Shown: piece by piece, positions 3,917 to 60,008 of the stretch
How positions within the stretch are numbered: the first letter of the stretch is position 1
Layout of the letters: each line of letters starts with the position of its first letter
Assembly (NCBI GenBank): GCA_963730915.1
Contig: CAVSTR010000004.1
Location: 407,014-471,013 of the forward strand
Direction: 5' to 3'
Length of the DNA stretch: 64,000 nucleotides
Source of the DNA: an uncultured Gemmatimonadales bacterium
GTDB taxonomy: Bacteria; Gemmatimonadota; Gemmatimonadetes; Gemmatimonadales; GWC2-71-9
The notes under the pieces: generated by a model
What the model saw: the letters and a program-made list of their open reading frames with translations, nothing else
Told to the model about the DNA's origin: nothing
The model's database searches: none
Translations under genes and position numbers: made by a program

Positions 3917-4744
<828 letters not shown>

Positions 4745-6597: not shown

Positions 6598-6637
6598 CAA
6601 AAAACCGCCGGTTCACCTTGATAGGCGGCTCGGCGGT
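6598..6637 (-). terminator. Possible Rho-independent terminator on the minus strand
   Basis: Minus strand reads ACCGCCGAGCCGCCTATCAAGGTGAACCGGCGGTTTTTTG: a 6-bp GC stem plus a T6 tail. The loop is long. Confidence 0.5.
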
Positions 6638-6640
6638 CTT

Positions 6641-7265: not shown

Positions 7266-9163
7266 CTAGCGATATCCGGCGGCTTGAAGCTGGAACAGCT
7301 CCGAGTACAGTCCTCCCAGCTCCACCAGCGCCTCGTGGGTCCCCTGTTCCACCAGCTCCCCACCCTTCAGCACCAGGATCCGGTCGGCCATCCGAACCGT
7401 CGAGAACCGGTGCGAGATCAGCACCGCCATCCTTCCTTTCGTCAGCTCTGAGAACCTGAGGAACACCTCGTACTCCGCCCGGGCATCCAGTGCCGCGGTG
7501 GGCTCGTCCAGGATCAGGAGCTGCGCGTCCCGCATGTAGGCCCGGGCCAGCGCCACCTTCTGCCACTCGCCGCCCGAGAGATCCACCCCGCCCTCGAACC
7601 GCTTCCCCAGCATCTGGTCGTACTGGCCTGCGAGCCGCTGGGCCACCGAATCGGCCAGGCTCCGCTCCGCCGCGGCCCTGATCGCGGGATCGTCCTCGAT
7701 CCGGGCGATGTTGCCCACGGCGATGTTCTCCTTCAGGGCGAAATCGTAGCGCACGAAGTCCTGGAAGATGACGCCGACGTTCTTCCGCAGGCTGTCGACG
7801 TCGTACTCCCGGAGATCCACGCCGTCGAGCAGGATCCGCCCCTCGTCCGGGTCGTAGAGCCGAGCCAGCAGCTTCACCAGCGTGGTCTTGCCGGCGCCGT
7901 TCTCGCCCACCAGCGCGATCCGCTCGCCCGGCGCCAGCGCGAAGTTGAGATGCCGCACCGCCCAGCTCTCCGCGCGGGGATACTTGAACCCCACACCCTC
8001 GAACACGAAGCCCTGCGTGATCGGCACCGGCACCTGCCGCGCACCCGGATTGCGCCGGATGCTGGGCTCGATGTCGAGGAAGCTGAACAGATCCTCCAGA
8101 TAGAGACTCTGCTCGAACACCTGCGACAGGGAGAGCAGCACCCGCTGGATCAGATCGCGGCTCTGCCGGAACGAGCCGGCGAGGAAGGTCAGAACTCCGA
8201 TGGTGAACACCCCGGCCCGCGACTCGTGCCCGATGACCGTCAAGTAGATGATGACGGCATACGCCCCGTAGTACCCCAGCGTGCCCACGAACGACAGCAA
8301 GGTGGACGCGACGCTCCGCCGGACCGCCAGGTTCCGGTTGGCCCGGTAGAACTCGTCCGACAAGCCGGTCGTACCGCCCGACCAGAAAATCCGACAGCCC
8401 GAAGAGCTTGAGCTCCTTGGCCGAGATGTCGCTGGCGCCGATGTAGCGGAGGTAGTCGAGCTGACGCCGCTCGGGAGTCCATGAATACAGGAGCGAGTAG
8501 CCCAGCGAGGCGAAGTGGGTCTCGCCCAGGAGCGACGGCAGCACCGCGACCACCAGCAACAGCAGCAGCCAGGGTACGTAGACCGTGAGCGCCGCGGCCA
8601 GGGTGATCAGGGTGATCAGGTCCTGCAGCGTCGCCAGCAACATCGTAAACAGGCCGATGCGGCCGACCGTCTGCCGCCGGGCCCGCTCCAGCTTGTCGTA
8701 GATCTCCGCGTCCTCGAACTGCTCCAGGTCGAGATTGGCGGCGTGCTTCATGAGCTGCACGCTGGTCCGGTTGGCGAACAGGTCTCCCAGGAGGCTCTCG
8801 AGCAGGGCCGATACTCGGCTCAATCCTTCGCCCACCAGGGCGATGCCGAGCTCGATGCCGACCAGGATCGCGAGACGGCTCCACGCCGACCTCGCCTCCC
8901 GCCTGCGCCACGTTGATCGAGTGCACCACCTCGTCCACGATGAGCTTCCCGATCCAGAGCACCGCCAGCGGAATGACCGACCGGGCGATCCGCAGCAGAA
9001 GGATTCCGACCACGTAGCCCGGCTTGGTCTCCCACACCATCCGGAGAAGCTTGGGCAGATGCCGAAGCGCCTGGAGCCGCTCGCGCCAGGAGCGGTCCGG
9101 CGCGGCCGGCATGCGTCCGCGTCCGTTGCCGCGAATGACGGGGTGTTGGAGAGGGAGGGACAT
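7266..9163 (-). pseudogene. ABC transporter, fused permease/ATPase (MsbA-like exporter), broken into three frames as assembled
   Basis: TM segments are in ORFs 8240..9163 and 7246..8835. The NBD is in ORF 7266..8363 (GENGAGKTT Walker A, LSGGEWQ signature, LLILDEPT Walker B). Frame changes lie near 8885 and 8360. Confidence 0.85.
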
Positions 9164-9164
9164 A

Positions 9165-9450
9165 CTCTAAAAGTAAGGGGACTAGGACAGGCGTGAGCGG
9201 GAAAAACGAAAACGTGAGCGGGACGAGGAGCAGCGTGAACCCGAGCGGGTACGGGTCACAATATCATCCGAGCGAGTAATCTGGGGGATTGCTTCGGCGC
9301 TCCGCGCCTCGCAATGACTGTTTGGCTGTTCCCGCTTACCGCTCACGTTTGTCCTAGCCCCGCTCACGCTTTTTCATACAGCCCCCCACCGCTCACGTTT
9401 GTCCCTTCGCTTCGCTCAGGGCGTGCCTAGCCCCGCTTACTCTTTTACCT
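9165..9450. repeat. Palindromic cassette A: GTGAGCGG-type left arm, ~65-nt core, CCGCTCAC-type right arm
   Basis: The left arm 9170-9255 is similar to the reverse complement of the right arm 9331-9450. The core 9256-9320 is shared with cassette B. Confidence 0.8.
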
Positions 9451-9485
9451 TAGGTCGTATCAGCTTCCCACCCCAGGAGACCTCC

Positions 9486-10214
9486 ATGGCAGTGAGTGCG
9501 GCGGCAGTACGGACGGCTCGGCGAACTCGGCGCTTCTACGTCGGAATGGCGATCGCCATTACCATCACCGTATTCGTCGGGTTCTCCCGCAGCTATTTCC
9601 TCAAATCATGGTACGGCACGCGGGAGCTGAGCGGCCTGCTCCACGTCCACGGCCTGATCTTCACCGCGTGGGTTCTGTTCTTCCTCTCCCAATCGGTGCT
9701 GGTGGCAACCGGCAGAACGTACCTGCACCGCAGAATGGGTATCGGCGGGGCCGTGCTGGCCGGGCTGGTGGTGATCGTGGGGACTGTGGTCGCGATCCAC
9801 CGGGCCAAGACGGGCGTGTCCCCCATTCCCGGGGTGCCGCCGCTTGGTTTCCTTGCGATTCCTCTTTTCGATATGGTCGTGTTTGCAGTGCTGGTGAGCT
9901 CAGCCATCTACTTCCGTCACCGGCTGGAGGCCCACAAGCGGCTGATGACGTTGTCCATGATCAGCCTGCTTGCGGCTCCGATAGCCCGGATGAACTTTCT
10001 CCCGCTGCCGCCCGGCCCACCCACGTTCTTCGGTCTGGCGGATCTCTTCATCGTGGTCCTGGTGGTGTATGATCTCTCGACTCGAGGGAAGGTACATCCT
10101 GCCACGATCTGGGGCGGGCTTCTCATTGTCGCCTCGCAGCCATTCCGGCTGATGATCTCCGGAACCGCGCCCTGGCTGGCGTTTGCGAGCTGGCTAACGG
10201 GTACTGCAACGTGA
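9486..10214 (+). CDS. Integral membrane protein (about 6 TM), family not recognised
   Basis: AGGAGA RBS 5 nt before the ATG at 9486, then repeated hydrophobic segments. The stop TGA at 10212-10214 lies inside the first GTGAGCGG unit of cassette B. Confidence 0.7.
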   Translation: MAVSAAAVRTARRTRRFYVGMAIAITITVFVGFSRSYFLKSWYGTRELSGLLHVHGLIFTAWVLFFLSQSVLVATGRTYLHRRMGIGGAVLAGLVVIVGTVVAIHRAKTGVSPIPGVPPLGFLAIPLFDMVVFAVLVSSAIYFRHRLEAHKRLMTLSMISLLAAPIARMNFLPLPPGPPTFFGLADLFIVVLVVYDLSTRGKVHPATIWGGLLIVASQPFRLMISGTAPWLAFASWLTGTAT

Positions 10215-10450
10215 GCGGGACAAACAGCGTGAGCGGGACTAGGACGAGCGTAAGCCGTGAGCGGAGAGATAATGTTATCCGAACGAGTGAGCCCGAGGAT
10301 GGCTTCGGGCTGCCCCCTCGCAATGACTCCGTCGTAAACGCCCGCTTACGGCTGCCCTCGTCCCGCTCACGCCTTCAGGCCCCCGCTCACCGCTTACGCT
10401 TGTTCTAGTCCCGCTCACGCTTTTCGTTGACCCCGTTTACCGTTCACGCC
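10205..10450. repeat. Palindromic cassette B (same family as A)
   Basis: 10227-10264 pairs with 10383-10420: of 38 positions, 1 is a mismatch and 2 are G-T. The core is at 10266-10330. Confidence 0.85.
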
Positions 10451-11157
10451 ATGTCGCAAACCGCCCTCATCACCGGCGCCACTGAAGGCATCGGCCGAGC
10501 CACCGCCTTCGCGCTCGCACGCGCCGGATACCGGGTGGGCGTGTGCGCGCGCACCGAGGCCAAGGTCCGGAAGCTGCGTCAAGGAGCTCGATGCCGAAGG
10601 CGTCGAGGCCGCCGGAGCGAGCGCCGACGTAGGCGACCCGGGTCAGGTCGACCGCATGGTGAAGCAGATCACAGGCTCGCTCGGCGAGATCGATGTGCTG
10701 ATCAACAACGCCGGAGTCCTGATCGGAAAGCCGTTCGAGGAGCTGACGCTGGACGAGTGGGACACCACCATGAACACCAACGTCCGGAGCCTCTTCCTGG
10801 TAACCCGAGCAGTGATTCCGGGAATGCGTGAACGGCGGCACGGATCCATCGTGAACGTCGCCAGCCTGGCCGGCCGCAACGGCTTCGTGGGCGGCACCGC
10901 CTACACCGCCTCCAAGCACGCGGTGCTCGGGTTCAGCCGCTCACTCATGCTGGAAGTGCGAAAGGACAACGTCCGCGTGATCGCGGTCTGTCCCGGCTCG
11001 GTGGACACCAGTATGCTGCGCGATCAGCCGATGCTTAAGTCGGAGCCCAGCCGCATCCTCCAGCCCGAGGACGTGGCCGCGGACGATTCTGCAGGCGCTC
11101 ACCCTCCCCGCACGCGCCCTGGTGAGCGAGCTCGACATCCGGCCGACGAATCCGTGA
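10451..11157 (+). pseudogene. SDR family oxidoreductase with two frame changes as assembled
   Basis: ITGATEGIGRATA, NNAG and YTASKHAV are present. Frame changes lie near 10581 and 11080. My re-framed C-terminus reads TILQALTLPARALVSELDIRPTNP*. Confidence 0.8.
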
Positions 11158-11171
11158 GGAGGGGCGGACGA

Positions 11172-11195
11172 GTCGGAGGGTCGGAGGGTCGGAGG
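11172..11195. repeat. Tandem octamer GTCGGAGG x3
   Basis: Read directly from the sequence, immediately after the SDR stop. Confidence 0.8.
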
Positions 11196-11238
11196 GCTGA
11201 CAGGCGAACATAGGATGGTGATATGACGACAACTGCTG

Positions 11239-11463
11239 ATGCCTGCTAACACTTCATCTGTGCTGATCTCCCGCTGCATCTGCAAGGCCACCGAGTTCGC
11301 GGACCTGCTCGGCCCCGCCCGCGAGCACGGCTGGAGCCTGGCCGACCTGGTCCGGGAAACCGGCTGCGGCGGACAGTGCGGCCTCTGCCGTCCCTATATC
11401 AGCCGGATGCTCCGAACCGGCGAGACCGAGTTCCACGAGATCATCACCGAGGAACCCTCCTGA
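11239..11463 (+). CDS. BFD-like (2Fe-2S)-binding domain protein
   Basis: Cys pattern CIC ... CGGQCGLC, typical of bacterioferritin-associated ferredoxin-like domains. Confidence 0.7.
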   Translation: MPANTSSVLISRCICKATEFADLLGPAREHGWSLADLVRETGCGGQCGLCRPYISRMLRTGETEFHEIITEEPS

Positions 11464-11477
11464 CGGCCCGCCCTCAT

Positions 11478-13040
11478 GTGACCGTCCGCCGTCTGGCGGC
11501 TCGGATCGAGCGCTGGTGGCGGCGTCTGTCCTACACCGGCTCGATCGTCGGCGTCGCGATCATCATCGCCTGGCTCGGACTCTGGCTGTTCCGCCAGAAT
11601 GACGAGGTTGGGCTGCTGCTGACCTCGGTGGCGACGCTGCTCACGCTGATCACGTTTCGCCACATCCGGGAGTTGGCCGAAGCCCAGAAGGAGTCGCTCC
11701 AGCGCGCCCTGGCTCAGGCCGATCGGCGGAATCGCGAGCTGGAACGGCTCCGCCATCTGGCTGGAACGCTGCTCGCCGGCGCCGACCTCGAGAGCCTGAT
11801 GAAGGAGGTCGCTCGAACCGCGAGCGAGCTGCTCGAGGCAGACAGCGGCGGCGTCACGCTGGTGGTGGAGGAAGGCCGCTTCCTGCGGTTGATGGCGGCA
11901 TGCGGAACGCTCGAGCCGTTGGTTGGCCTGTTGCTGCCGATGGACGGATCGCTGCTCGGCTACGTGGTGAGCCAGGATACGCCGCTGGTCTCGGATGACA
12001 TGAGCGCCGATCCGCGCAGCTATCACCGCCCCAACATGTCGGTGACGCTGAAGACGGCGGCGATGATTCCGCTTCGGTCAGCCGGGGTGCCCATCGGCAC
12101 GGTGAGCGTCTACAACCGGCGCGACGGCCAGCCGTTCAGCGACCACGATCTCCGCCTGCTCCAGATCCTGGGCGACCAGGTGGTCGTGGGCCTCGACCGC
12201 GCCTCGGTGCTGCAGGAGAGCCGGCGCAACGAGCTCGCGCTGCGCACCAAGAACGTCGAGCTGCAGCGCGCCACCCAGCTCAAGAACGAGTTCCTCACCA
12301 ACATGTCGCACGAGCTGCGTACGCCTCTCAACGCCATCATCGGCTTCTCGGATCTGCTGCTGGACGGCGGTACCGGCGAGCTCAGCAACCCGCAGCGCGA
12401 GTTCACCGAGGCGGTGTCGCGAAACGGCAAGCACCTGCTCTCGCTGATCAACACCGCGCTCGATCTCTCCAAGATCGAAGCCGGCCGGATGACGCTCACC
12501 CTTGCGATGACGGATCTGCGCGAGGCCATCAAGGACGCGGTGGCCGACACGGCCAGCCTCCGGACCGCCAAGCGGCAGGAGTGCACGCTCGAGCTCGACT
12601 CCGACTCGCTGTCGATCCTGGCCGACGGAGGCCGCATTCGTCAGATCCTTTTCAACCTCCTGTCCAACGCGTCGAAGTTCACGGGCGAAGGCGGCAAGAT
12701 CTCGCTTGCGGCGGTGCGGACCAACGTTCCGCTGCGGCAGCCGGCCGAGCGCGCCGGCGAGCGCGCCCGGTTCGTCAATCAGGATGTGGTATGGGTGTCG
12801 GTGTCGGACGAGGGTATCGGCATTAAGCGGGCCGACATGCCCAAGCTGTTTCAGGAGTTCAGCCAGGTGGACAGCTCGTCCAGCCGCCGGGCGCAGGGCA
12901 CCGGCCTGGGGCTCGCCCTCTGCAAGAAGTTCGTGGAGATGCACGGCGGCACCATCGGCGCCGACTCCGTGTTCGGGAAGGGGGCGGCGTTCTGGTTCCT
13001 CCTGCCGGCTGAGGGGCCTGTACGCAGAGCTAATGCATAA
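11478..13040 (+). CDS. Sensor histidine kinase (TM, GAF, HisKA, HATPase_c); no adjacent response regulator
   Basis: H-box MSHELRTPLNAIIGFSDLL and G-box GTGLGLALCKKFVEMHGG. The start is placed at the in-frame GTG at 11478, just after the upstream stop. Confidence 0.88.
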   Translation: MTVRRLAARIERWWRRLSYTGSIVGVAIIIAWLGLWLFRQNDEVGLLLTSVATLLTLITFRHIRELAEAQKESLQRALAQADRRNRELERLRHLAGTLLAGADLESLMKEVARTASELLEADSGGVTLVVEEGRFLRLMAACGTLEPLVGLLLPMDGSLLGYVVSQDTPLVSDDMSADPRSYHRPNMSVTLKTAAMIPLRSAGVPIGTVSVYNRRDGQPFSDHDLRLLQILGDQVVVGLDRASVLQESRRNELALRTKNVELQRATQLKNEFLTNMSHELRTPLNAIIGFSDLLLDGGTGELSNPQREFTEAVSRNGKHLLSLINTALDLSKIEAGRMTLTLAMTDLREAIKDAVADTASLRTAKRQECTLELDSDSLSILADGGRIRQILFNLLSNASKFTGEGGKISLAAVRTNVPLRQPAERAGERARFVNQDVVWVSVSDEGIGIKRADMPKLFQEFSQVDSSSSRRAQGTGLGLALCKKFVEMHGGTIGADSVFGKGAAFWFLLPAEGPVRRANA

Positions 13041-13042
13041 AG

Positions 13043-13082
13043 AGCGTGAGCGGGACAAGGACGAGCGTGAGCGGTAAGCGGG
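13043..13082. repeat. Left arm of cassette C (AGCGTGAGCGGGACAAGGACGAGCGTGAGCGGTAAGCGGG)
   Basis: Reverse complement of 13503-13543, except for one bulge and two G-T pairs. Confidence 0.9.
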
Positions 13083-13145
13083 AAAACGTCACGATCGGCG
13101 CCTGTTTGGAATAAGCGTCAAGAGTGCTTGTGCGTATCGTGACGG

Positions 13146-13502
13146 ATGCGAGACCACAAGTCATTGCATGCATGGCAGGAAGCGCGTGGGGTCGTCCTCG
13201 GTACTATCGAGCTGGCACGTACTAGCTGGAAGCCGTATGCATCAGCTCTCTTTTCTCAGCTTCAGCGGGCATCCTTATCAGTGCAGTTGAACATCGCGGA
13301 GGGATATGCATACGGCCGATCGCGTTCGTTTACACGGCATGTGTCGATCGCCTATGGTTCTGCCGTCGAGACAGGAGAGCTATTGGAGGTCGCGCTGGAT
13401 GCAAAGATCGTGGCGAAAGAAGTAGGAGATCATCTTCTCGAGAGAAACCGCAGGAGTCAGCGACTACTGCTCGGTATGTTGCAAAGAATGAAGGCTACCT
13501 AA
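13146..13502 (+). CDS. Four-helix-bundle protein (23S rRNA intervening-sequence protein family, Avd-like fold)
   Basis: Family hallmarks: LHAWQEARGVV.., LQRASLSVQLNIAEGY, and SIAYGSAVETGELLEVA. Length is 118 aa. Confidence 0.85.
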   Translation: MRDHKSLHAWQEARGVVLGTIELARTSWKPYASALFSQLQRASLSVQLNIAEGYAYGRSRSFTRHVSIAYGSAVETGELLEVALDAKIVAKEVGDHLLERNRRSQRLLLGMLQRMKAT

Positions 13503-13574
13503 CCCTGCTTACCGCTCACGCTTGTCCTTGTCCCGCTTACGCTTTTTTGTCCCTGTCCTAGTCCCGCTCACGCC
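13503..13574. repeat. Right arm of cassette C (CCGCTCAC / CCGCTTAC / GTCCTAG units)
   Basis: Pairs with 13043-13082. Extra units extend to 13574. Confidence 0.9.
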
Positions 13575-13594
13575 ATTCCAGCTATACTGATCCT

Positions 13595-13945
13595 ATGACC
13601 GCGCGACTGATCCAGGCCAAGGCTCTCCTCCTGCTGCTGGTGTTCCTGGCGGCCGGGACCAGCCTGCCCAGCCTGGACGCCCTGGCGTTCCACGGGAACG
13701 CGGCCGGGAGCGAGCGGTCCCGCACTCACATCGAGCCGGCCGGCGGCTGTCTCAGCCACACCGATGGGTGCAGCCTCGGACGCACTGCCTCCGGCTCCGG
13801 AGCGGTCGCCGCGGCTGAACCCGAGTCCCGTCTCGTCCCCACGGACAGTCCGTTCATCCAGCAGTCCCTACCACTCCAGCCAGTCTGCGCCGATACCGGC
13901 GCGCTCCCTCACAGCCGAGCCCCTCCGACTCTCCGCTACGTCTGA
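13595..13945 (+). CDS. Hypothetical small exported protein with His/Cys cluster (possible metal-related)
   Basis: N-terminal hydrophobic segment and the HIEPAGGCLSHTDGC cluster. It lies first in the metal-uptake-like cluster. Confidence 0.5.
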   Translation: MTARLIQAKALLLLLVFLAAGTSLPSLDALAFHGNAAGSERSRTHIEPAGGCLSHTDGCSLGRTASGSGAVAAAEPESRLVPTDSPFIQQSLPLQPVCADTGALPHSRAPPTLRYV

Positions 13946-13993
13946 TCGTTCGCGCCGGTAGCGGCGCGACCCTCTCACGGATCGGAGAACCAC

Positions 13994-15380
13994 ATGCACG
14001 CTTGTGGTCGTACGGCCATTCTGGTGGGCACCTGCTGCCTGGGGCTGGCAATTCCCGCCCGGGCACAGACACCTGCCGCACTGGATTCACTGCGAAGGAG
14101 CCTCACCGCCACGTCGGCTCGAATCGACTCACTCGAGGCCGGTCTGTGTCCCGGTGGCTCGATCAGTCACTTCCGGCGAACCGGCAACGCCGTCACCGAC
14201 AGCATGGCGGCGACGCTGGAGCGGCTGGACCGCCGAGTCGCGGCGCTGCGAGCGAGTCGATGCACCGGCGCTCCGGCTCAGCCGGCGGACACCTCGGACG
14301 ATCTGGCCGCGCTCCGCGCCGCTGCGGCCGCCGCGGCGGGACAACCCGCACCATCCGACACGACCGAAAGAGCCGACACCGTCCCCTCGGCGGAAGCGGC
14401 TCCTCCACAGACAGCGGGGCCGAGGAGCGCCAATCTTCTCAATCCGGAGATCAGCGCCACGGGTGACGTGCGCCTGGTGGCAGCAGAGAACGCCCGCGGT
14501 GAGGCGGTGGCGCGAGAGTTCGAGTTCGCTTTTCAGTCGGCGCTCGATCCCTACTCCAACACCAAGATCTTCCTGGCGGCGAGCGATGAAGGCGTCGAGA
14601 TCGAGGAAGGCTACATCTACTACACCGGACTGCCGGGGCGGCTCCGGCTCGACTTCGGAAAGTTCCGCCAGCAGGTGGGCGACCTCAACCGCTGGCACGG
14701 CCACGCTCTTCCTGAGACCGAATATCCGCTGGTGTATCAGCGCTACTTCTCCGCGGAAGGCCTCGCCGGAGTCGGCCTCTCGCTCTACACCTCGCTCCCC
14801 TTCTCGCTCGGTGGCGCCACCCACGAGGTATGGCTGCAGGGCACCAGCGTCGAGAGCGATCCGCTGTTCGGCGGCGGCCGGGATCTGCTGTTCCTCGGTC
14901 GGCTCCAGAATTTCTGGCAGCTGAGCCGCAGCACCTACGCCCAGGTGGGCATCACCGGACTCGGCGGCGACAACGGAGGTGCGGATCTCAAGAGCCGGAT
15001 GGCAGGACTCGATCTCCGGGTGACCTATCGCCCACCCGAGGCCGCCACCCGCCGCGAGATAACGTTCCGGGCCGAGGGCTACCGGCTCCACACCGATGAT
15101 CTGGGCAATCACCGCGAACCGCTACGGCGGATTTCTCGATCTGTCCGCTCGCCTCACCCGCCGCTGGATACTCGGCGCCCGCTACGACCACGTCGACGCG
15201 CCGAGAGGTCCGGACGATTCCGAATGGCGCGTCACGCCGAACATCACCTGGTGGCAGAGCGAGTTCGTGTACCTCCGGCTCGAGGGCGAGCATCGGAATA
15301 CCGAGCTGGAGGGGAGCCGGAACATGCTGTCGTTGCAGGCGGTGTGGGCCATGGGACCGCATAAGCATGAGACGTATTGA
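13994..15380 (+). pseudogene. Outer-membrane beta-barrel/porin-like protein, one frame change near 15100
   Basis: Signal peptide, coiled-coil N-region, and alternating beta-strand pattern. After re-framing the C-terminus reads ..NMLSLQAVWAMGPHKHETY (ORF 15096..15380). Confidence 0.7.
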
Positions 15381-15590
15381 GGGCGGGGCGGCGGGGCGGC
15401 GGGGCGGCGAGGCGGTAAGGCGCTGAGCGCAACGAAGCGATCTCCAGATGACCAGACTTACTGAAGGAAGGACACCAATATGACGTTCACGATCACTGCT
15501 CATGTCTTGCAGGACTCATCGGACAACCTACTGCCCCGCTGCCCCGCAGCCCCGCTGAGCTTCTGCCCCGCGGCCCCGCGGCCCCGCCTC
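15379..15590. repeat. Palindromic cassette D built from GGGGCGGC-type octamers
   Basis: 15379-15416 is similar to the reverse complement of 15560-15590. The centre contains GCTGAGCGCAACGAAGCGATCTCC. Confidence 0.8.
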
Positions 15591-16574
15591 TCCGGATCGT
15601 CACCTCTCTCACGACCTACGGCGCCATCGCGCGCGAGATCGTGGGCGACCGCGGGACCGTCACCGCGATCGCCCAGGGCGACGAGGACCCGCACTTCGTG
15701 CAGCCGAAGCCGAGCTTCGTTCGGATCCTGCGCGACGCCGATCTGTTTGTCACCACTGGTTTGGATCTGGAGCTGTGGGTGCCGGCGCTGCTGGACCGTG
15801 CGGGCAACCGCAAGATCCTCGATGGCTGCGCCGGGCTACGTGGCTGCGTACCGCGGCATCGACTTGCTCGAGGTGCCGACCTCGCTCAGCCGCTCCCAGG
15901 GTGATATCCACGTGGACGGCAACCCGCACATACACACCGATCCCCTCAACGGGATCATCATCGCCCGGAACATCCTCGCCGGTCTCCAACGAGTGTCGCC
16001 CGGCGACGCGGCGTTCTTCGCCGGCCGCGAGAAAGATTTCGAGCAGCGGGTGCTCGAGGCCACCATGGGTTCAACGCTGGTGTCGGCGCTGACGCCGGGC
16101 ACCGCGTTCGAGCTGCTGCGCACCAATCGGCTGCAGCCGTTTCTCGCGGGCCAGAAGTTCCAGGGAAAGCCGCTCAGTGAGCAGCTCGGCGGCTGGCTCA
16201 AGCAGGCGGAAGTAGTCCGGGGAAAGGAAATGGCCTGCTACCACAAGGAGTGGGCCTACTTCAGCCGCCGGTTCGGGGTCGAGTGCATGACCTTCATCGA
16301 GGCCAAGCCCGGTATCCCGCCCACTCCCCGGCACGTGCAGGAGGTGATCGACCTCATGAAGGAGCGGAAGGTGTCGGCGCTCTTCGCCTCGAACTACTTC
16401 GATCGGAAACAGATCCAGCAGGTGGCCGAGCGTACCGGGGCCCGGGCGGTGATCGTCCCTGAGAACACCGAGGGCGCACCCGGAGTGAAGACCTACTTCG
16501 ATCTCGTGAACACCTGGATCACCAGCCTCACGGCCGCGTTTCGGAATGTCGCCGTACAAACCGGAGCATCCTGA
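15590..16574 (+). pseudogene. ZnuA/TroA-like metal ABC transporter substrate-binding protein, lacking start and signal peptide, one frame change near 15823
   Basis: My re-framed reading is LRIVTSLTTYGAIAREIVGDRGTVTAIAQGDEDPHFVQPKPSF...NRKILDG, then AAPGYVAAYRGIDLLEV..DIHVDGNPHIHTDP. Confidence 0.75.
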
Positions 16575-17432
16575 TGGACCTGAGCCTCTTCCTTCCGCCG
16601 CTCGTGGCGTGTCTCGTCATCGTGGCGATCCACTCGTACCTGGGCCTGCACGTGATCGCGCGAGAGGTGATCTTCGTCGACCTGTCTCTGGCCCAGATGG
16701 CGGCGCTGGGCTCGACCGTCGCCATTCTCGCGGGGAGCCCAGCCCGATTCACCCACCGCTCTGCTCTATGCGCTGGGGTTCACCAGCTCGGCGCCGCCCT
16801 GTTCGCCCTTACGCGCACAGTGGAGAAGGGGCCGGTCCCGCAGGAGGCGATCATCGGCATTGTCTATCGTCATGGCCTCCGCGGCGGCGATCCTCGTGGC
16901 CGATCGGACACCTCGGGGTGGTGAGGCGATCAAGGACATTCTCGTTGGTAGCCTGCTCTGGGTAACCTGGCCGACGATTCTCCGGCTGGCCGGCGATCTA
17001 TGCGCTGGTCGGGAATCTTTCACTGGGTGCTGCGGCGGCGCTTTCTGGCGATCTCGTTCGACCCGGAAAGCAGTGCGGCAAAGGGCTGGCGCATACGCTG
17101 GTGGGATTTCTGGTTCTACCTCTCGTTCGGCATCGTCATCACCTTCTCGGTCCCGATCGCGGGAGTGCTGCTGGTCTTCAGCTTTCTCGTCGTACCCGCG
17201 GCGGTCGCGTTTCAGTTCACCCGAGAGGCACAGCATGCTGGCCGTGATCTCGTGGACCGCCGGTGCCTTGGCCTCCGCGCTGGGGCTGCTGGTCTCGTTC
17301 GAGTACGATCTGCCGACCGGTCCGGTGGTCGTCTGCATGTTCGGATTGGTGTTGCTGGCTGCTTACGTGTCGCGGCGAGTCCTGATGCGAGGAAGCTCAG
17401 AGGTCGGACTTCGGCCCGCGCGGCATGGATGA
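16574..17432 (+). pseudogene. ZnuB-like metal ABC transporter permease with at least five frame changes
   Basis: Protein-like segments alternate between frames: MDLSLFLPPLVACLVIVAIHSYLG.., LGAALFALTR..EAIIGIVY, MASAAAILVADRTP.., FHWVLRRRFLAISFDPE.., and MLAVISWTAGAL..DLPTGPVVV. Confidence 0.75.
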
Positions 17433-19020
17433 GCGAATCACACCCGAGCCGGGTTTTCTGCCGGGCGTAAAGGGAGGCGGCAGCAGGGCGGACCGCCGCA
17501 GCAGCTCGAAGTGCCCGGCGACGATGTTCGCCAGACGATGCGCGGTATCGAGATGCGGCTCGGCCAGCTCCGCGGGTGAGCGGGCGCTGAACACCAGAGC
17601 GCCGTGAGACCTGCCCGCCACCTGGAGAGGAACGATCAGCCGGCTTTCTCCGCGGGCCTGCGAGAGCGCGTGGGGCATCTCGCCTCGAAGTACGCGCGCC
17701 AGCGCAGTTCCGGTTACAGGCACCAGCGGCAGCTCGTGAAGCGAGCGCCGTTCCCCCGGCTGTAGGAGAACCACTCGGTCTCCATCGGTCAGCTTCAACG
17801 CGACCGTGAGCTCGGTGAAGGGCAGCAGGACTGAGCCTTCTTCCGCAATCAGACGGGTAGCGGCCGCCGGATCGGACGTCGTGGCCAGGACAGCGGCGAT
17901 GCGAAAGAGCGCCTCCGCCGATCGGTCGCGCGCTTCGGGAGCAACCTTCGCGGGCTCAGGAGCTGGCGGAGGCGGAGCTTTCGTCACTCGCAGGAACCCA
18001 CCCACCTGCGGAGATACCAGCCCGGCCAGCAGGACCAGTAGTTCGACATCATCGTCGCCATAGATTTCCGGGCCGACGCTGCCCACCAGTAGATATCCCA
18101 CCGATCCTCCGCCCAAGCTCAACCCGGCACCCACCACCGCACGAATATCCGATCCGCCCGCCTCCGCCGCAGTCAGAAATCCGCGGGGCCAGCGCCCATC
18201 CTCGTAGGTATCCGCAACCAGCAGCTCGGGCTGATTGTCGAAGATCGCGGCGATATCCAGATGTTGCCGGCTGATGGTCAGCGATGGGTCGGCCCAGAGC
18301 GCGCCGCCCGCGTGCTCACCCAGGCGGAAGTATTCCTCGGCGGCCGCGTTCGGTACCAGCAACTCGACATGATCGTGCGGAAGCAGCGGAGTCAGCGCCG
18401 CGGCTGATGGCAGCCAGGAATCTTTGAGGAGACGCTACTTCGCGGTTCGCGACCGCGACAGCCTGCAGAAGTCCCGCGATTCGCTCCTGCTGCCGGGACG
18501 ACGCCGACTCGGTGGGAATCCACTGACGAGCGATCCGGCCCAGCATCGGCGCCACACGCTGAGCCACGCACTGCAGCAACACCCGCTCGGCCGCTCCGTA
18601 TCGCTCGGATTGCAGATCCGCGACCAGAAGCAGCGCAACGTCACGCCTGCCGAATCGGATCGGCAGACACGTCACCGAGCCATAGCCGGCAGTGAGTACG
18701 ATTTTCTCGATCTGAGAAATCTGTTCTGAGGTGAGATGAGGCGATGGCAGCGGCACCGGGAGGTCGTCGGCGGCGAGCTCGGCCGGCCCAACCAGGGCCA
18801 CGCCACCTTGCGACGGATACAGCCACAGCGCCATCAGGTCGTGCGGCACTTCCACGGACAGCGTGTTGGACAGCGCCTGATGCCAGGTGGTGAGGGCGAC
18901 TGGATCGACCTGGGCATCTGCTCGAAGGATGGGAACGAGCGGTTCGCTCCCAACAGCTGAGAGCGGATCGTCCACCGGCTCGTCTTCGAGAGAGGGTGCC
19001 ATGCGGCGCTCATAAGGCAT
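17397..19020 (-). pseudogene. Stand-alone multi-GAF-domain protein, one frame change near 18400
   Basis: ORFs 18316..19080 and 17397..18362 join once re-framed (..FLAAISR/ALTPLLPHDHVELLVPNAAAEEYFRL). There are three GAF-like repeats and no output domain. The start codon is uncertain. Confidence 0.6.
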
Positions 19021-19175
19021 GACGTATGCCCCCGCATGCCTGCACTCAACCCTTTCGGGTGTAGGTATTTGCAGTGGCACCTCGGACTGCTCTGGGTGCT
19101 GAGGTCATGGAAGGCTCTGCGTCCTGCCCGCGTGTCTTGCAGCCTGCTGCTTCCAGCGCGTTGACTTGAAAGTAC

Positions 19176-19203
19176 TTGACATACCCCCACCCCCTATGAT
19201 ATT
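19176..19203 (+). promoter_or_regulatory. Candidate cop promoter (TTGACA ... GATATT) with C-tract operator-like element ATACCCCCACCCCCTAT in the spacer
   Basis: Read directly from the sequence. It lies 35 nt upstream of the copZ ATG, and a csoR gene is in the same locus. Confidence 0.5.
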
Positions 19204-19237
19204 CTCAGGTTTGTAATTGCAGATCGGGGGACCTTCA

Positions 19238-19474
19238 ATGCCACACCTGACGCTCCACATTACCGGCATGAGTTGCGGACACTGCCTTCACGCTGTGAAC
19301 GAGGCACTGGCTGCGCATCCGGGAGTACGCCTCGACTCGCTGCGTATGGGCCGCGCCGAGGTCCAGTACGACGAAGGGATAACGACGCCGGCGGCGATCG
19401 AGGCCGCGATTGCTGAGGCCGGTTACAACGCCACTTCGTCAACGCCGCGTGCCCTGAGCGAAGAGCAGAGATGA
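19238..19474 (+). CDS. copZ: Heavy-metal-associated (HMA) copper chaperone
   Basis: GMSCGHC metal-binding motif and a ferredoxin-like fold length. Confidence 0.85.
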   Translation: MPHLTLHITGMSCGHCLHAVNEALAAHPGVRLDSLRMGRAEVQYDEGITTPAAIEAAIAEAGYNATSSTPRALSEEQR

Positions 19475-19563
19475 GTGTGGCCGAGATCATCGTCACCGTC
19501 GCTGGAGTGGTCGCGATCGTCGCGATCCACTACTGGTTTCTGAAGGATGCTAACCAGAGGTAA
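19471..19563 (+). CDS. 30-aa single-TM peptide, start overlapping the copZ stop (ATGA)
   Basis: My own translation: MSVAEIIVTVAGVVAIVAIHYWFLKDANQR*. It is below the ORF-track size cut-off. Confidence 0.45.
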   Translation: MSVAEIIVTVAGVVAIVAIHYWFLKDANQR

Positions 19564-19575
19564 GCAGCCTCACTC

Positions 19576-21919
19576 ATGAGTACCGCGGTTCTGGACACCC
19601 GTAGTTTCCCAGTTTCCGGCATGACCTGCGCTGCGTGCAGCGCACGGGTGCAGCGCGCCCTGGAGAGAGTTCCGGGTGTGAGCGCAGCCAACGTCAACCT
19701 GATGACCGGTTCCGCCACGGTCGAGTTCGACCCGGAGACGGTTGCACCCGAGCAGCTGGTCGAAGTGGTTCGCGCCACCGGGTACGGCGCCGAGCTGCCG
19801 GAGGCCGCAGCGTCCGCGGAAGAGGAGCTGCAGGATCGCGACGAGGTCCAGGCGGAGGAGCTCCGGGTTCTTCGCTGGAAACTGGTGGTCAGCCTCGTTG
19901 CCGCGGCGCTCACGATGGTGTTCAGCATGGTTCTGGCATCGGTGGCACCGGGATCGATGAGCGATCCCCTGATGCAGTTCATGATGCCGGCGACGGATTG
20001 GCTGCTGCAGAGCGTGCCCGGGCTAAACCGGGTCTCCGCTGACAGCTGGCGCTATCTGCTGCTGGGTCTCACCCTGCCCGTGGTCGGCTGGGCCGGACGC
20101 CACTTCTATACCCGGGCATGGTCTGCGTTCCGCCATCACGGTGCGGACATGAACACGCTGATCGCGGTCGGCACCGGGGCCGCTTTTCTCTTCAGTGTTG
20201 CCGCGACGCTCTTCGACGACTGGCTGGCTGCGCGCGGAATCGAGCCGCACGTCTACTACGAGGCCGTCACCTGGATCATCGCGCTCGTTTTGCTCGGAAA
20301 TCTGCTGGAGACGCGCGCCAAGGGGCGTACGTCCGGCGCGCTGCGCCGGTTGATCGGGCTTGAGACCGAGTACGGCGCGGGTGCTGCGAGCGGGGCGGGA
20401 AGAGGAGATCCCTCTATCCGGCCTTCGTGAGGGAGACGAGGTAGTGGTACGGCCGGGTGAAACGATTCCGGCCGACGGCGTGATCCTCCAGGGCAGCAGC
20501 TACATCGACGAGTCGATGCTGACCGGTGAGCCGGTGCCGGTTTCTCGCGGGGCGGGTGATCGGGTGATCGGAGCCACGCTCAATCGGAACGGCGCCTTTC
20601 ATTTCAGCGTCTCTCGCGTCGGCCAGGACACCGTGCTGTCGCAGATCATCCGCCTGGTTCAGCAGGCGCAGGGGTCGAAGGCGCCGATTCAGCGTCTGGC
20701 CGATCGCATCTCCGCGGTCTTCGTTCCGGTAGTTCTCTCTCTCGCCGTCGCGACTTTCGTGCTGTGGTTCGATTTCGGGCCGGAGCCGGCCTATCTGCAC
20801 GGCCTGGTCGCCGCGGTCACAGTGCTCATCATTGCGTGTCCCTGCGCGATGGGTCTCGCGGTACCAACGGCGGTGATGGTCTCGACCGGCCGGGGTGCGG
20901 AGCTCGGTGTTCTCATCAAGAAGGGAGAGGCGCTCGAGCGAACCGGGCATCTCGACGTCCTGGCTTTGGACAAGACCGGCACCGTCACCGAGGGTCGCCC
21001 GGTCGTCGAATCCGTCAGCATCGCGCCGGGAACAGAGATGGACGCGAATACGTTGCTCCAGCTCGCCGCCTCGGTCGAGCGTCTGAGCGAGCATCCCCTT
21101 GCCGAAGCGATCGTCGAGGAAGCGGAGCGGCGGGGCATCGCCGGGCGCGACGTAGTGGACTTTCGAAGTTTCGCCGGCAAGGGTGTCACCGGACTGGTCG
21201 AAGGCCGTCAGGTCGCCGCGGGCAACGCGCTGTTGATGGTGGCGATCGGCGCCGACACCGCCCTGCTGCGGGAAGAGTCGGAGCATCGAACCCGGCGGGG
21301 ACAAACCACGGTGTTCATCGGGGTGGATGGCGAGCTCGCCGGCCTCATCGCGGTCGCGGACCCGATCCGCCTGACGAGCTCGAACGCTGTGAGCCGCCTT
21401 CGCAAACTGGGCCTGGACCTGGTTCTGCTAACCGGCGACGACGACCGCACCGCACGCGCGGTGGGGAAGTCGGTTGGGATCGAGCGGGTCATCGCCGAGG
21501 TATTGCCGGATGAGAAGCTCCGGGTGGTGCGGCGAATCCAGGAAGAGGGCAAGACGGTGGCGCTGGTGGGTGACGGGCTCAACGATGCGCCGGCGCTGGC
21601 CCAGGCCGACATCGGTATCGCGATGGGAACCGGAGTCGACGTCGCGGTAGAGGCGGCCGATATCGTCCTCATGCGGAGCGACTTGCTCGGCGTGGTCGAT
21701 GCAATCCGGCTCTCTCGCCGGACCATGCGCGTGATCCGGCAGAATCTGTTCTGGGCGTTCGTCTATAACGTCATCGGCATTCCCATCGCGGCGGGCGTTC
21801 TATACCCGCGCTTTGGTCTGCTGCTGACACCGGCGATGGCAGCGGCAGCGATGGCGTTGAGCTCGGTCAGCGTTGTGACGAATAGTTTGAGACTGCGGAG
21901 ATACAGGAGTAAAAGGTGA
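19576..21919 (+). pseudogene. copA: Copper-translocating P1B-type ATPase, one frame change at the GGG run 20356-20358
   Basis: N-terminal GMTCAAC HMA domain, CPC ([11 protein letters not shown]), DKTGT, and [10 protein letters not shown]. Removing one G restores ..[22 protein letters not shown].. Confidence 0.9.
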
Positions 21920-21993
21920 AGAGTGAAGAGTGAAACCCACTGTTCACTGTTCACCGCTGACGGTTCACTGTTCACTTTTCACTTTCACCTCAC
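21915..21993. repeat. In-phase heptamer array that switches polarity: 3 x (A/G)GTGAA(G/A), then 8 x TTCACTG-like
   Basis: GGTGAAG AGTGAAG AGTGAAA CCCACTG TTCACTG TTCACCG CTGACGG TTCACTG TTCACTT TTCACTT TCACCTC. The copA stop TGA lies inside the first unit. Confidence 0.85.
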
Positions 21994-22016
21994 GCTGTTT
22001 GACTAAGGAGTTCCCC

Positions 22017-22364
22017 GTGTCCACCGAGACCATTACTTCGCCCTGCGCGTGCGGCGCCCGGCCGGGCGACGGAACTCACGCCGTCGAGGTCGATCCCGAA
22101 GCCAAGCACGCCATCGTCAGTCGACTACGGCGAATCGAGGGTCAGGTTCGGGGGCTCCAGAAGATGGTGGACGAAGAGCGATACTGTGCCGATGTGCTGA
22201 TGCAGCTGTCGTCGGTGCAGGAAGCGTTGCGTGGTGTGGGCCGCGCGCTGCTGGAGAATCACCTGAGACATTGCGCCACCGAGGCGATCCGCTCTGCCGA
22301 CCCCGCGAAGACGGAAGCTATCTACGAGGAGTTGATGGAGCTGATGTATAAGAACGCGAGGTAA
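22017..22364 (+). CDS. csoR: CsoR/RcnR family metal-sensing transcriptional repressor
   Basis: RLRRIEGQVRGLQKMV..RYCADVLMQLSSV..HLRHC. GTG start follows an AAGGAG RBS. Confidence 0.88.
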   Translation: MSTETITSPCACGARPGDGTHAVEVDPEAKHAIVSRLRRIEGQVRGLQKMVDEERYCADVLMQLSSVQEALRGVGRALLENHLRHCATEAIRSADPAKTEAIYEELMELMYKNAR

Positions 22365-22438
22365 GCGGGTAAGCGGGTAAGCGGGTAAGCACGGGTAAGC
22401 GGGTAGCGGAGCTAAGCGGTAAGCGGGTAAGCGGGTAA
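22361..22438. repeat. Tandem octamer array GTAAGCGG, about 9-10 units
   Basis: Read directly from the sequence. The csoR stop TAA lies inside the first unit. Confidence 0.9.
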
Positions 22439-22449
22439 GACGAGAAGGT

Positions 22450-22537
22450 GTCACCCTGAGCGAAGCGAAGGGGCCGGAAAAGTATCCTTCTGGGATACCT
22501 TCGTGCTAACACCCCCGCGTCCTGAACTCAGGGTGAC
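22450..22537. repeat. 88-nt hairpin module GTCACCCTGAG...CTCAGGGTGAC with nested stems
   Basis: The 11-bp terminal inverted repeat encloses inner pairs CGAAGG/CCTTCG and GTATCC/GGATAC. A 19-nt block is identical to 9403-9421 on the opposite strand. Confidence 0.85.
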
Positions 22538-23730
22538 GATTTTCCGATTTTTTCTCTCTTCCGCGCCTTGGCGGCGCCGTCTTTCCCGTCCTTCCCGACC
22601 TTCTTCGACTCTTCCGCCCGCTCATCCCTGAACTTCAGCGCCGCACGATACTCCTTCACCAGTCGCCCCATCATTGCCTCCCGCCGAGCGTACAACCGCT
22701 TGAGCGGACGACTCTCGTGGCGCTCTCTGGCATACGCCGTCAGCAGCGGCAGCCCAATGGAGCTGTCGGTATACACCACCACCGTTCCCGGAAGCTGGTC
22801 CGGATCGATCTTGCCCCAGCTCACCGCTTCAGCGGGGGTGGCGCCTGAAAGGCCGCCAGTGTCGGGACGGGCATCGGTGATCTGCAGGAAGTAGTCGTGG
22901 CCCCGCTCGTCGATGCCGAGCACCTCCTGGATCTGCGGCTCGGTCTGAAGCATGAAGTTCTTGGGGCTGCCTCCGCCGACGATCAAGACTCCGCTCTTGC
23001 CTCCAGACCGCTTGGCCTCCAGCACGATGCTGGCGGTCTCGTTCACATCAGCGCTGACATCGAACCTGAGCTTGCTGCCGGCAAGCGCCTGCTCCGCCAC
23101 GTTCATCCCGATCGAGCTGTCTCCCGGGGAGCTGGTGTAGATCGGCACCTCGAATTCGTGAGCGGCTGAGAGCACCGAGCGCCGGGAGAGGCCGAGCGCG
23201 CGCTCCCGCTCGCGGACGTAGCCACCCAGCAGGTAGTGGTACTCCGCGGAGCTCATCGGTCGCTGGAATTCTTGCCGAGCCGACACCTCGCGAACGAACG
23301 CGTCGGTCGAGAGCAGGACGTTGTAATCGAAGAAGATGTCGTAGATCCGCACCACGCCCTTGTCGCGCAGCTCCACATCGTCGGCGCCGGGAGTGCCGCG
23401 ATGCATCGCGAGGCCCAGTGCGAAATGCGCATCGTGGTAGAGGTTGGCTCCGGTGGAGATGATCCAGTCCACGAAGCCGGACTCCATCAGCGGAATGAGG
23501 CAGCTCATGCCGAGCCCCGCCGGCGTCATCGCACCGGTGAGCGTCATTCCCACGGTGGTGTCCGGCGCGAGCATTCGTTCGGTAAACAGCTGACAGCCCT
23601 CCCTCAGGCGGCCCGCGTTGTACGCCAGGAAGGCGTTGTCGATCAGCTCCGCGACGGTTTCCCTGCCGGTCGTTGCCTTTGGATCGATCCGCTGGCCGCG
23701 CAGGTACTTCGCGGAAGGTCGGCTGTTCAT
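22528..23730 (-). CDS. Deoxyhypusine synthase-like (homospermidine synthase-like) protein with Lys-rich C-terminal tail
   Basis: DHS family blocks: [28 protein letters not shown]. Start placed at the ATG at 23730, which overlaps the upstream stop. Confidence 0.85.
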
Positions 23731-59959: not shown

Positions 59960-60008
59960 TAAGCGGAAGCGGAAAACCGTGAGCGGGGACGCTTCCGTTA
60001 CCGGCTTA
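59960..60008. repeat. Mini cassette of the AAGCGG/GTGAGCGG family
   Basis: TAAGCGGAAGCGGAAAACCGTGAGCGGGG faces CGCTTCCGTTACCGGCTTA. GGAAGCG/CGCTTCC and TAAGC/GCTTA pair. Confidence 0.6.

Follow-up and report, generated by a model that had tools for sequence, protein, structure and literature searches.

The window analyzed in this study, a stretch of 64,000 nucleotides from an uncultured Gemmatimonadales bacterium (contig CAVSTR010000004.1, positions 407,014 to 471,013), carries seven clustered loci in which short units, mostly of 7-8 nt, are repeated, in most cases as the two arms of a hairpin. One of these loci (13039..13573) is a complete element: a small gene encoding a 23S-rRNA-intervening-sequence protein (IVP), enclosed by a long inverted repeat. 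All features described below lie on the plus strand unless otherwise indicated. The seven loci are situated at gene junctions, as the original prediction for this DNA had proposed, with the right arm of one of them (locus 15379) placed within the coding region of znuA. The junctions were set by homology and synteny, since only 57% of the window was called as coding by a GC-frame gene finder. The genes concerned are, in order, up307 and those encoding a membrane protein, an SDR protein, a histidine kinase, p116, p456 and ZnuA, and, further along, an ATPase, a CsoR-like repressor and homospermidine synthase.

The complete element lies between the stop codon of the histidine-kinase gene (13038-13040) and a TATACT box preceding the next gene, a small open reading frame (ORF), p116 (ATG 13595). 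It begins with a left arm (13039-13086), whose building block is the 21-nt unit GCGTGAGCGGGACnAGGACrA, and continues with a variable leader (13087-13145), the gene of the IVP (13146-13502) and a right arm (13503-13573). The 118-aa product is a four-helix bundle that matches PF05635 (E = 4e-19, 69 bits; cut-off 33.8) and TIGR02436 ("four helix bundle protein"; E = 2e-18, 66.6 bits; cut-off 24); the nearest solved structure is that of the S23p protein XCC0516 (PDB 2GSC; E = 3e-6). This is the only gene of these families in the window, and the only ORF of the complete element. The protein is under purifying selection (dN/dS = 0.06-0.14 where dS was measurable). A likeness to rRNA intervening sequences (IVSs) had been noticed from the repeats, and the protein encoded in the loop bears it out; the element lies between the kinase gene and p116, not in helix 25 or 45 of 23S rRNA, and no rRNA was found in the window. 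A tblastn search with 16 diverse IVPs revealed no IVP remnants in the ORF-less loci of the window, which are therefore not simple internal-deletion derivatives of the complete form. PADLOC gave no hit for two IVP proteins.

The TATACT box (13581-13597; conserved at the orthologous sites of the related sequences L082-L118) is located approx. 7 nt before the ATG of the small post-kinase gene, a spacing compatible with a leaderless-mRNA promoter, and the IVP element is inserted just upstream of it. A conserved leader RNA was ruled out, because the segment between the left arm and the start codon is only 20-67% identical even in orthologous elements.

Eight loci of inverted arrays had been predicted. 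Compared with dinucleotide shuffles, five of them are significant hairpins: 9165 (fold z = -4.8; 0/200 shuffles as good), 10205 (z = -9.3; arms of 45 nt, 89% complementary), 13039 (z = -5.7; arms of 44 nt, 91% complementary), 15379 (z = -3.7) and 21915 (z = -3.4). Two others (11158 and 22360) proved to be tandem-only, the region 22355-22620 as a whole folding no better than its shuffles (z = -0.2), and the eighth, a mini copy, is not significant (z = -1.6 for the folded segment 59950-60020; 12/200 shuffles fold equally well). An inverted-repeat finder identified arms of 38-45 nt with 74-91% complementarity at 9191/9332, 10220/10383 and 13039/13504, and arms of 24-30 nt at 15382/15565. Five strict 7/8-nt arrays are present in the window, whereas 100 dinucleotide shuffles gave 0.01 on average. 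The motif GTRAGCGG is present in 19 copies (3.3 expected) and its complement CCGCTYAC in 15 (3.5 expected), nearly all within the named loci. The arrays do have the period of 7-8 nt that had been described, except at loci 9165, 10205 and 13039, where the GTRAGCGG units are mostly 21 nt apart instead of forming plain tandem 8-mers; the higher-order unit at all three is the 21-nt sequence given above.

The ORF-less hairpin at 9165..9450 separates two divergent genes, up307 (minus strand, start codon 9163) and the gene of a 271-aa membrane protein (ATG 9487). Its left arm (approx. 9178-9238) contains GTGAGCGG at 9193 and 9214, its core (9256-9318) is a degenerate "type B" palindrome, GGATTGCTTCGG..CCTCGCAATGAC, and its right arm (approx. 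9321-9445) contains CCGCTYAC at 9332, 9339, 9360, 9389 and 9433. A second ORF-less hairpin (10205..10450) fills the junction at which the membrane-protein gene meets the SDR gene (ATG 10452), and consists of a left arm (10209-10264), a type B half-core (10265-10341) and a right arm (10342-10448); the two cores are 78% identical over 60 nt. The array at 11158..11196, GGAGGGTC x4.8, abuts the SDR stop codon (TGA 11156-11158, placed by homology), and no inverted partner for it was found within the window.

At the p456/znuA junction (15379..15594), GGGGCGGC is paired against GCCCCGC. The left array (15382-15415) comprises four copies of GGGGCGGC (Tandem Repeats Finder unit GGCGGGGC, 4.2 copies), and the right array (15531-15594) is made of CTGCCCCG/CGGCCCCG (Tandem Repeats Finder: 15531-15587, CTGCCCCG, 7.1 copies). 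The loop contains the ribosome-binding region and the start codon (ATG 15480) of znuA, and the right arm lies within the region coding for the N-terminal Pro/Ala linker. The short hairpin at 21915..21993, between the P-type ATPase gene and the CsoR-like repressor gene, pairs GTGAAGA with (TTCACTG)-type heptamers (Tandem Repeats Finder: 21916-21934, GTGAAGA, 2.7 copies; 21938-21988, CACTGTT, 7.4 copies). The composite locus at the junction of the CsoR-like and homospermidine synthase genes (22360..22603) has three parts: a tandem array, GGTAAGCG x9.8 (22360-22439); a separate "type A" palindrome, GTCACCCTGAGCGAAGCGAAGG...CTCAGGGTGAC (22450-22537); and a pyrimidine array, CCGTCCTTC x3 (22577-22603), which does not match the left array. 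The possible degenerate mini copy (59960..60008), statistically unsupported, reads AAGCGG, GTGAGCGG ... CCGGCTTAC.

In three cases the stop codon of the upstream gene falls within the first repeat unit: TGA 10212-10214 in the first GTGAGCGG unit of locus 10205, TGA 21917-21919 of the ATPase gene, and TAA 22362-22364 of the CsoR-like gene. Since units of the form GTGAnnn or GTAAnnn have a period of 7, a stop codon is available in every frame. A further array, at 903-926 (CCGCCCCG x3), was rejected as a family member, because it lies inside the coding region of a minus-strand Ser/Thr protein kinase.

A scan of metagenomes with the histidine kinase adjacent to the complete element recovered the orthologous neighbourhood in approx. 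40 contigs. The IVP gene is present at this site only in the two closest relatives, L081 (kinase 90% identical) and L160. In 13 orthologous contigs the site is empty: the kinase stop codon is followed, mostly within approx. 15-20 nt, by the p116 start (…TGAGTATACTC…ATG), and both arms and the gene are absent. An IVP 91% identical to that of the window is found at the kinase site, and another, 89% identical and with the same arm layout, follows an unrelated Mur-ligase-like gene. The arm-gene-arm unit has therefore been copied as a whole to new intergenic sites. A generating mechanism rather than simple copy-paste had been suggested, as speculation, for the architecture; the unit at the unrelated site, the 13 empty sites and the conservation of arms within a protein clade contradict this. 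No target-site duplication was seen when filled and empty sites were compared, the left end overlapping the host stop codon.

Two small palindromes were also encountered at the kinase site: in L119, GTCATTGCGAGG…CGAAGCAATCC, a motif that also forms the cores of loci 9165 and 10205, and in L130, GTCATCCTGAGCGCAGCGAAGGATC, whose family is represented at 22450-22537. The type B palindrome (GTCATTGCGAGG..CGAAGCAATCC / GGATTGCTTCGG..CCTCGCAATGAC) is located in the window at 9256-9318 and 10280-10327, and elsewhere at L081:3467-3560 and 4484-4575, L087:18-99 and L119:499-614. It occupies the centre of GTGAGCG-type arms, the usual place of the IVP gene, and its sequence is conserved without covariation, like that of REP-like repeats. 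The type A palindrome, GTCATCCTGAGCGnAGCGAAGGATC ... GATCCTTCGCTnCGCTCAGGATGAC (window 22450-22537; L034:72-140; L076:914-990; L130:292-361; L084:4194), is multi-copy in Gemmatimonadales contigs; the distance to a heptamer or octamer array is at most 150 nt for about half of its copies, and approx. 20 nt or less for several. It matches no Rfam family.

The design of the complete element is general among relatives of the source organism. More than 1,200 IVP homologues were found, the closest being 72-93% identical, with the source-named ones among these coming from Gemmatimonadales, and a genome scan with the IVP gave 80 loci, all but one in Gemmatimonadota. For the 67 loci with both flanks, the 200-220 nt upstream of the gene were aligned with the reverse complement of the downstream flank. 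In 61 of them the IVP gene is enclosed by an inverted repeat of tandem 7-8 nt units, among which are GTGAGCG, GTGAACG, GTGAAGA, GTGAGAG, GTGAGGA, GTGAGAA, GTGACAG, GTGAGCA, GGTAGCTA, GGGGAAC, GGGAGCA and GCGAAAA. The median complementarity score is 53 for real pairs of arms, against 21 when right arms are taken from other loci and 17 in direct orientation, and unit changes are compensatory on both arms across the 61 loci. As originally proposed, then, the architecture is kept and the unit varies, among the window loci, the 67 related loci and the orthologous sites of L081. On the protein tree, sister loci have a common unit and clades differ by single-base unit steps, with GTGAGCG recurring across several clades. 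On the sense strand of the IVP gene, purines make up 76% of the 5' arm. By crude gene calls, the IVP gene mostly lies between convergent neighbours (30 of 56 loci) and rarely between divergent ones (five). A terminal recognition motif (AAMAGCGTGA / TCACGCTKTT) was found at only about one-third to one-half of the loci.

Arrays without the gene are also common. In 669 kb of related sequence we counted 163 arrays of period 6-9, roughly two-thirds of which have an inverted partner within 900 nt; many contain no ORF and are built of unrelated units. Many of the close IVP homologues are on contigs of only 500-1000 nt, which suggests that repeat-armed elements break short-read metagenome assemblies.

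Comparison of orthologous junctions revealed how the arms change. Over 3,565 nt, L092 and L102 show 99.66% identity and a single indel, which corresponds precisely to one GGGTAAGT unit (8 nt) of the array that follows the stop codon of the kinase gene. Arrays in place thus gain and lose whole units, in keeping with the slippage envisaged at the outset. Between the window and L081, every junction with an array in one sequence has an array in the other, with differing units. At the up307/membrane protein junction the 21-nt GCGTGAGCGGGAC… unit of the window corresponds to pure (GTGAGCG)x6 arms around an intact type B palindrome in L081; at the SDR/kinase junction, GTCGGAGG corresponds to a full hairpin, (GTGAACA)x4(GTGAACG)x2 ... 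GTTCACC/GTTTACC; at p456/znuA, GGGGCGGC to GCGGGACA; and at the ATPase/CsoR-like junction, GTGAAGA to GTGAACG/GTAAAAG paired with (CCCGTTC)x5. At the CsoR-like/homospermidine synthase junction, where the window has the GGTAAGCG array and a palindrome, L081 has a second IVP gene with GACGGAGA / CCTCCGCC arms.

The p456/znuA junction is without an insert (TGAnATG) in three relatives (L100, L103 and L104), and carries an insert of approx. 100-150 nt with differing 8-mers in seven sequences, the window and six related contigs (units GCGGGACA in L081, AGCGGGTA in L084 and L092, and GGCGGACG in L093). The right array, in host coding DNA, changes together with the left array, so that arms can evidently grow and be matched in place. 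In L082 an entire host gene, that of the SDR protein, lies between complementary 8-mer arrays (1-80 and 783-819) separated by approx. 700 nt. The upstream array is CTACCGCC/TTACCGCC and the downstream one GGTAAGGC/GGTACGGC, so that the right arm at one junction matches the left array at the following one.

The same design was found outside the Gemmatimonadota. Two IVPs were used in tblastn searches against plasmids, and 17 loci, from Nostocales, Pseudanabaena, Picosynechococcus, Geminocystis, Stanieria, Riemerella, Gemmatirosa and Azospirillum, were examined. Plasmid homologues are carried by Nostoc, Calothrix, Anabaena, Trichormus, Aulosira, Pseudanabaena, Picosynechococcus, Geminocystis, Stanieria, Riemerella, Gemmatirosa and Azospirillum. 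Arrays of 7-8 nt adjoin the gene in 16 of the 17 loci; most are inverted, with a richness in purines 5' of the gene. An exception is Pseudanabaena, in which they are in direct orientation. The 5' and 3' units are, respectively, GTAGGGA x8 and TCCCTAC x5 in Nostoc edaphicum, GGGAACA and TGTTCCC x7 in Nostoc C052, GGTGACA and CTGTCAC in Anabaena 90, GGGAAAA and TTTTCCC in Geminocystis, and GGTTTAA and ACCTTGA in Riemerella. The likeness to cyanobacterial short tandemly repeated repetitive (STRR) sequences that had been suggested also holds, the cyanobacterial IVP genes being flanked by STRR-like heptamers (GTAGGGA, GGGAACA, GGTGACA and CAGGAGT).

The Azospirillum locus (L174) lies inside the large-subunit (LSU) rRNA (model positions 824-1714) and is therefore a classical IVS. 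Its 5' arm, CAGAGGA CGGATGA CAGAGGA CGGAGGA, faces TCCGTCC TCTGTCT TCTGTCA TCCGTCT on the 3' side, and these arms resemble those of the window in having a period of 7. In the IVS of Coxiella, two to three tandem GACAGAT heptamers and a degenerate GACAGAA copy precede the S23p ORF, the number of heptamers varies among strains, and RNase III cuts at the first repeat (PMC4990558). The combination of gene and heptamer arms is therefore common to Gemmatimonadota, Cyanobacteria, Bacteroidota and an alphaproteobacterial IVS that truly interrupts 23S rRNA. In three cyanobacterial plasmid loci, L164 and L167 (both between cas6 and cas4) and L170 (between cas10 and cmr3), the four-helix-bundle gene with its heptamer arms is found inside CRISPR-Cas operons, a placement that may explain why 23S_rRNA_IVP is listed among cas-associated genes in surveys.

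On this evidence we consider it probable that the loci of the window are IVS-type hairpin elements and their ORF-less relatives, residing between protein-coding genes, which are copied and whose arms then evolve in place. The complete form would be the 118-codon IVP gene enclosed by its long inverted repeat, and the ORF-less relatives would have the same kind of arms around a palindromic core, a host start codon or nothing. Changes of unit probably spread along an arm by replication slippage. Intrastrand template switching, with selection for pairing, may then transfer them to the opposite arm, a quasipalindrome correction for which established quasipalindrome mutagenesis provides the model. 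The stem and the 7-nt period would thereby persist while the sequence of the unit drifts. By analogy with rRNA IVSs, the transcribed stem may be cut by RNase III, so that the element would be tolerated in an operon or in rRNA with little harm and the IVP mRNA would be released. ORF-less copies would act like hairpins of repetitive extragenic palindromes (REPs) and bacterial interspersed mosaic elements (BIMEs), as mRNA ends or processing sites; at znuA the hairpin encloses the start codon. A survey summarized in PMC4679880 attributes the excess of heptanucleotide repeats to polymerase slippage, which would account for the period of 7 without a special enzyme. An array-building enzyme, one of the mechanisms proposed earlier, is not needed, and nothing in our results points to one. 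The means of mobility are inferred.

Several observations weigh against this explanation. The examined loci revealed neither a transposase nor a target-site duplication nor any other sign of mobility. Mismatches within the arms are mostly transitions and show no sense-strand G-U excess (122 of the G-T type, G-U compatible on the sense strand, against 118 of the A-C type, compatible on the antisense), so that the spectrum provides no evidence for selection on the RNA, and agrees just as well with a constraint on the DNA. The znuA hairpin, whose right arm is host coding sequence, was not delivered as a ready-made two-armed insert. Orthologous ORF-less arrays may have unrelated units (GTCGGAGG versus GTGAACA) despite a 90% identical flanking protein; drift alone explains this poorly, and repeated replacement or de novo growth must be added. 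The purine-richness of the 5' arm is not accounted for by slippage and pairing. Finally, the SDR gene of the window is apparently frameshifted (split 10427-10831 / 10656-11213, and shifted by another +1 near 11090 when compared with L081), as is znuA (15480-16574), the N-terminal part of which is out of frame with the remainder; these shifts reflect either assembly indel errors or pseudogenes, and the unit counts in the window may accordingly hold errors.

A different possibility, to which we give limited credence, is that the IVP recognizes its own heptamer arrays, in a sequence- or register-specific manner and as DNA or RNA, for mobility, self-regulation or array upkeep. This would be a partnership of the kind formed by REP-associated tyrosine transposases (RAYTs) and REPINs, in the absence of the transposase fold, with the ORF-less arrays as non-autonomous dependants. 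The strong purifying selection on the protein is consistent with it, as is the retention across phyla of the 7-nt period and the purine-rich 5' arm, but not of the sequence. Avd, a homologue of the IVP, is a nucleic-acid-binding pentamer serving the reverse transcriptase of diversity-generating retroelements (DGRs), which also speaks for recognition, although sequence-specific binding by members of the family is putative. The unit type largely follows the protein tree, but joint inheritance of gene and arms also accounts for this. In a comparison of the window, L162, L161 and L081, the left arms are 76-91% and the right arms 75-80% identical, while 4-fold degenerate sites are 29-71% and leaders 20-67% identical; the unit is conserved where neutral sites are saturated, and its type is therefore kept beyond neutral expectation within the clade, with the reservation that repetitive arms align easily. 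Among ORF-less arrays within 3 kb of an IVP gene, 17 of 41 have its unit (6.9 expected; p < 0.0005), but the other 24 have units unlike any nearby IVP arm, and at least four types of unit are found in the window alongside its single IVP gene.

A search for specificity residues gave one weak candidate. Arg106 (codon 13461-13463) is invariant in all 33 IVPs whose unit has C at position 6 (GTGAxCx), and is replaced in each of three independent GCG-to-GAG sister pairs, in which the unit shifts to GTGAGAG. The signal amounts to three contrasts, however, and the number of columns differing in all three pairs is close to that expected by chance (5 versus 3-4), so that Arg106 may be a specificity contact or a coincidence. 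The fullest version of this proposal, that the IVP reads tandem heptamers in register and maintains or mobilizes the arms, so that IVP elements would be a transposase-free mobile system and the source of the long-unexplained STRR and similar heptanucleotide repeats of Cyanobacteria, Gemmatimonadota and further phyla, those seeding rRNA IVSs included, seems to us similarly doubtful.

Less likely again is the converse relation, in which the hairpin arrays are host features (terminators, mRNA stabilizers or translational controls such as that around the znuA start) grown in place by inverted duplication and slippage, with the IVP gene and the small palindromes of types A and B as secondary invaders that insert preferentially into their loops. 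ORF-less hairpins outnumber the IVP-bearing ones and are more varied in unit, the same arms may hold the IVP gene, a type B or a type A palindrome, arrays start exactly at upstream stop codons, and the right arm at znuA, in host coding sequence, changes with the left. Such invasion fails to explain the copying of arms and gene together to an unrelated site and the empty sites lacking both; a pre-existing heptamer hairpin of the host would, moreover, be unexpected in distant phyla and inside rRNA, where the same design holds. Nor is there an excess of terminators, a scan of the region giving seven terminator-like sites against 6.9 expected, although some right arms finish in GCTTTT. Very small mobile repeats have reportedly been described in Nostoc by Elhai and colleagues (2008); these are not evidence for insertion into heptamer arrays.

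That the arrays are functionless, slippage-prone simple-sequence repeats, incidentally inverted and incidentally linked to a gene, is very improbable: heptanucleotides are the commonest long repeats of this kind in most prokaryotes and are attributed to polymerase slippage in the survey summarized in PMC4679880, and near-identical strains do differ by one unit, but this reading is already contradicted by the pairing of the arms (far better than with permuted partners or in direct orientation, and better than in shuffles), the compensatory changes, the conservation of the unit beyond neutral sites and the link to one gene family in four phyla.

The closest known systems are the 23S rRNA IVSs with an S23p/IVP ORF, as in Leptospira and Coxiella burnetii (PMC4990558), which share with our elements the gene family (PF05635/TIGR02436), the layout (long terminal inverted repeats with a small ORF in the loop between them) and tandem heptamers of variable copy number in the 5' arm. 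They differ in location, the window elements being between protein-coding genes, and in lacking the many ORF-less relatives; the Coxiella ORF is reported to be decaying, whereas the IVP described here is under purifying selection, and RNase III excision would here be by analogy. REP/BIME and REPIN-RAYT systems (PMC3116915) are likewise abundant extragenic hairpins at gene ends, form mosaics of several repeat types at the same junctions, are present or absent at orthologous sites and have a coding "master" copy flanked by repeats that are also scattered without the gene. REPs, however, hold a family-wide sequence of 20-40 nt, while our arrays are locus-specific and made of 7-8 nt units; no palindromic unit of 20-40 nt common to all copies is present in the arms, and only the type A and B cores are REP-like. 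The RAYT is a Y1 (IS200-like) transposase, in contrast to the four-helix bundle found here, and the search at the seven loci revealed no RAYT nearby, all neighbours being assigned or syntenic host genes.

In STRR sequences, particular heptamers (CCCCAGT, TTGGTCA, CAACAGT) form direct tandem repeats in heterocystous cyanobacteria (Nostocales). STRR heptamers were reportedly treated by Mazel and colleagues (1990), and heptanucleotide long simple-sequence repeats by Mrazek and colleagues (2007). Our arrays resemble STRRs as mostly intergenic tandem 7-nt units that change by slippage, but the defined STRR sequences are absent, the units here being GTGAGCG, GTGAAGA, GGGGCGGC and others, and the host belongs to the Gemmatimonadales. 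Inverted pairing, an enclosed gene and occurrence in Gemmatimonadota do not appear in STRR descriptions within the searchable literature.

Miniature inverted-repeat transposable elements (MITEs) are similarly short, non-coding, insertion-polymorphic and bounded by terminal inverted repeats, with an apparent relation to a coding element, but the arms described here are internally repetitive with a changing unit. A classical MITE was ruled out by the absence of a target-site duplication and of a transposase-encoding parent, the only ORF of the complete element being the IVP gene. Avd of DGRs is a homologous four-helix-bundle protein of the same Pfam family (PF05635 is mentioned in PMC10053308); a DGR was excluded, since no reverse transcriptase or template/variable repeat pair is present at the examined loci, where the neighbours include the kinase gene, small ORFs and znuA. 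CRISPR arrays were dismissed as well, because the units are of 7-8 nt and contiguous, or 21-nt-spaced by conserved sequence, and are not repeats of 20-50 nt with unique spacers.

At the gathering threshold, the sole Rfam match in the whole window is a c-di-GMP-I riboswitch (6621-6730, minus strand; 47.3 bits, gathering score 35), away from the loci, and a permissive scan of 9000-23000 gave no credible match.

The ingredients of these elements, namely IVSs with an S23p ORF, STRR and other heptanucleotide repeats, and REP-like hairpins, are known. In the literature searched, which included few subscription journals, we found no general rule placing IVP genes inside heptamer-array stems, no description of insertion-polymorphic intergenic IVP elements in Gemmatimonadota, and no link between IVP genes and the STRR-like arrays of cyanobacteria. 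Two puzzles of about thirty years' standing, the nature and spread of ORF-bearing 23S rRNA IVSs and the abundance of tandem heptanucleotide repeats in some genomes, bear on this. Our results suggest that both are faces of one type of element, a small conserved gene in a heptamer-array stem, and that this element is far commoner between ordinary genes than in rRNA, with many hairpins that lack an ORF left in its wake. If so, RNase III processing would be expected at operon junctions, the IVP would bind its cognate arrays, and the array load of a genome would track its content of IVP genes. The hairpins provide stop codons for the genes that precede them, may surround a start codon (the case of znuA), and occur in the CRISPR-Cas operons of cyanobacteria. 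They are thus relevant to the breaks seen in short-read assemblies, and to the annotation and the reading of gene regulation in soil Gemmatimonadota.

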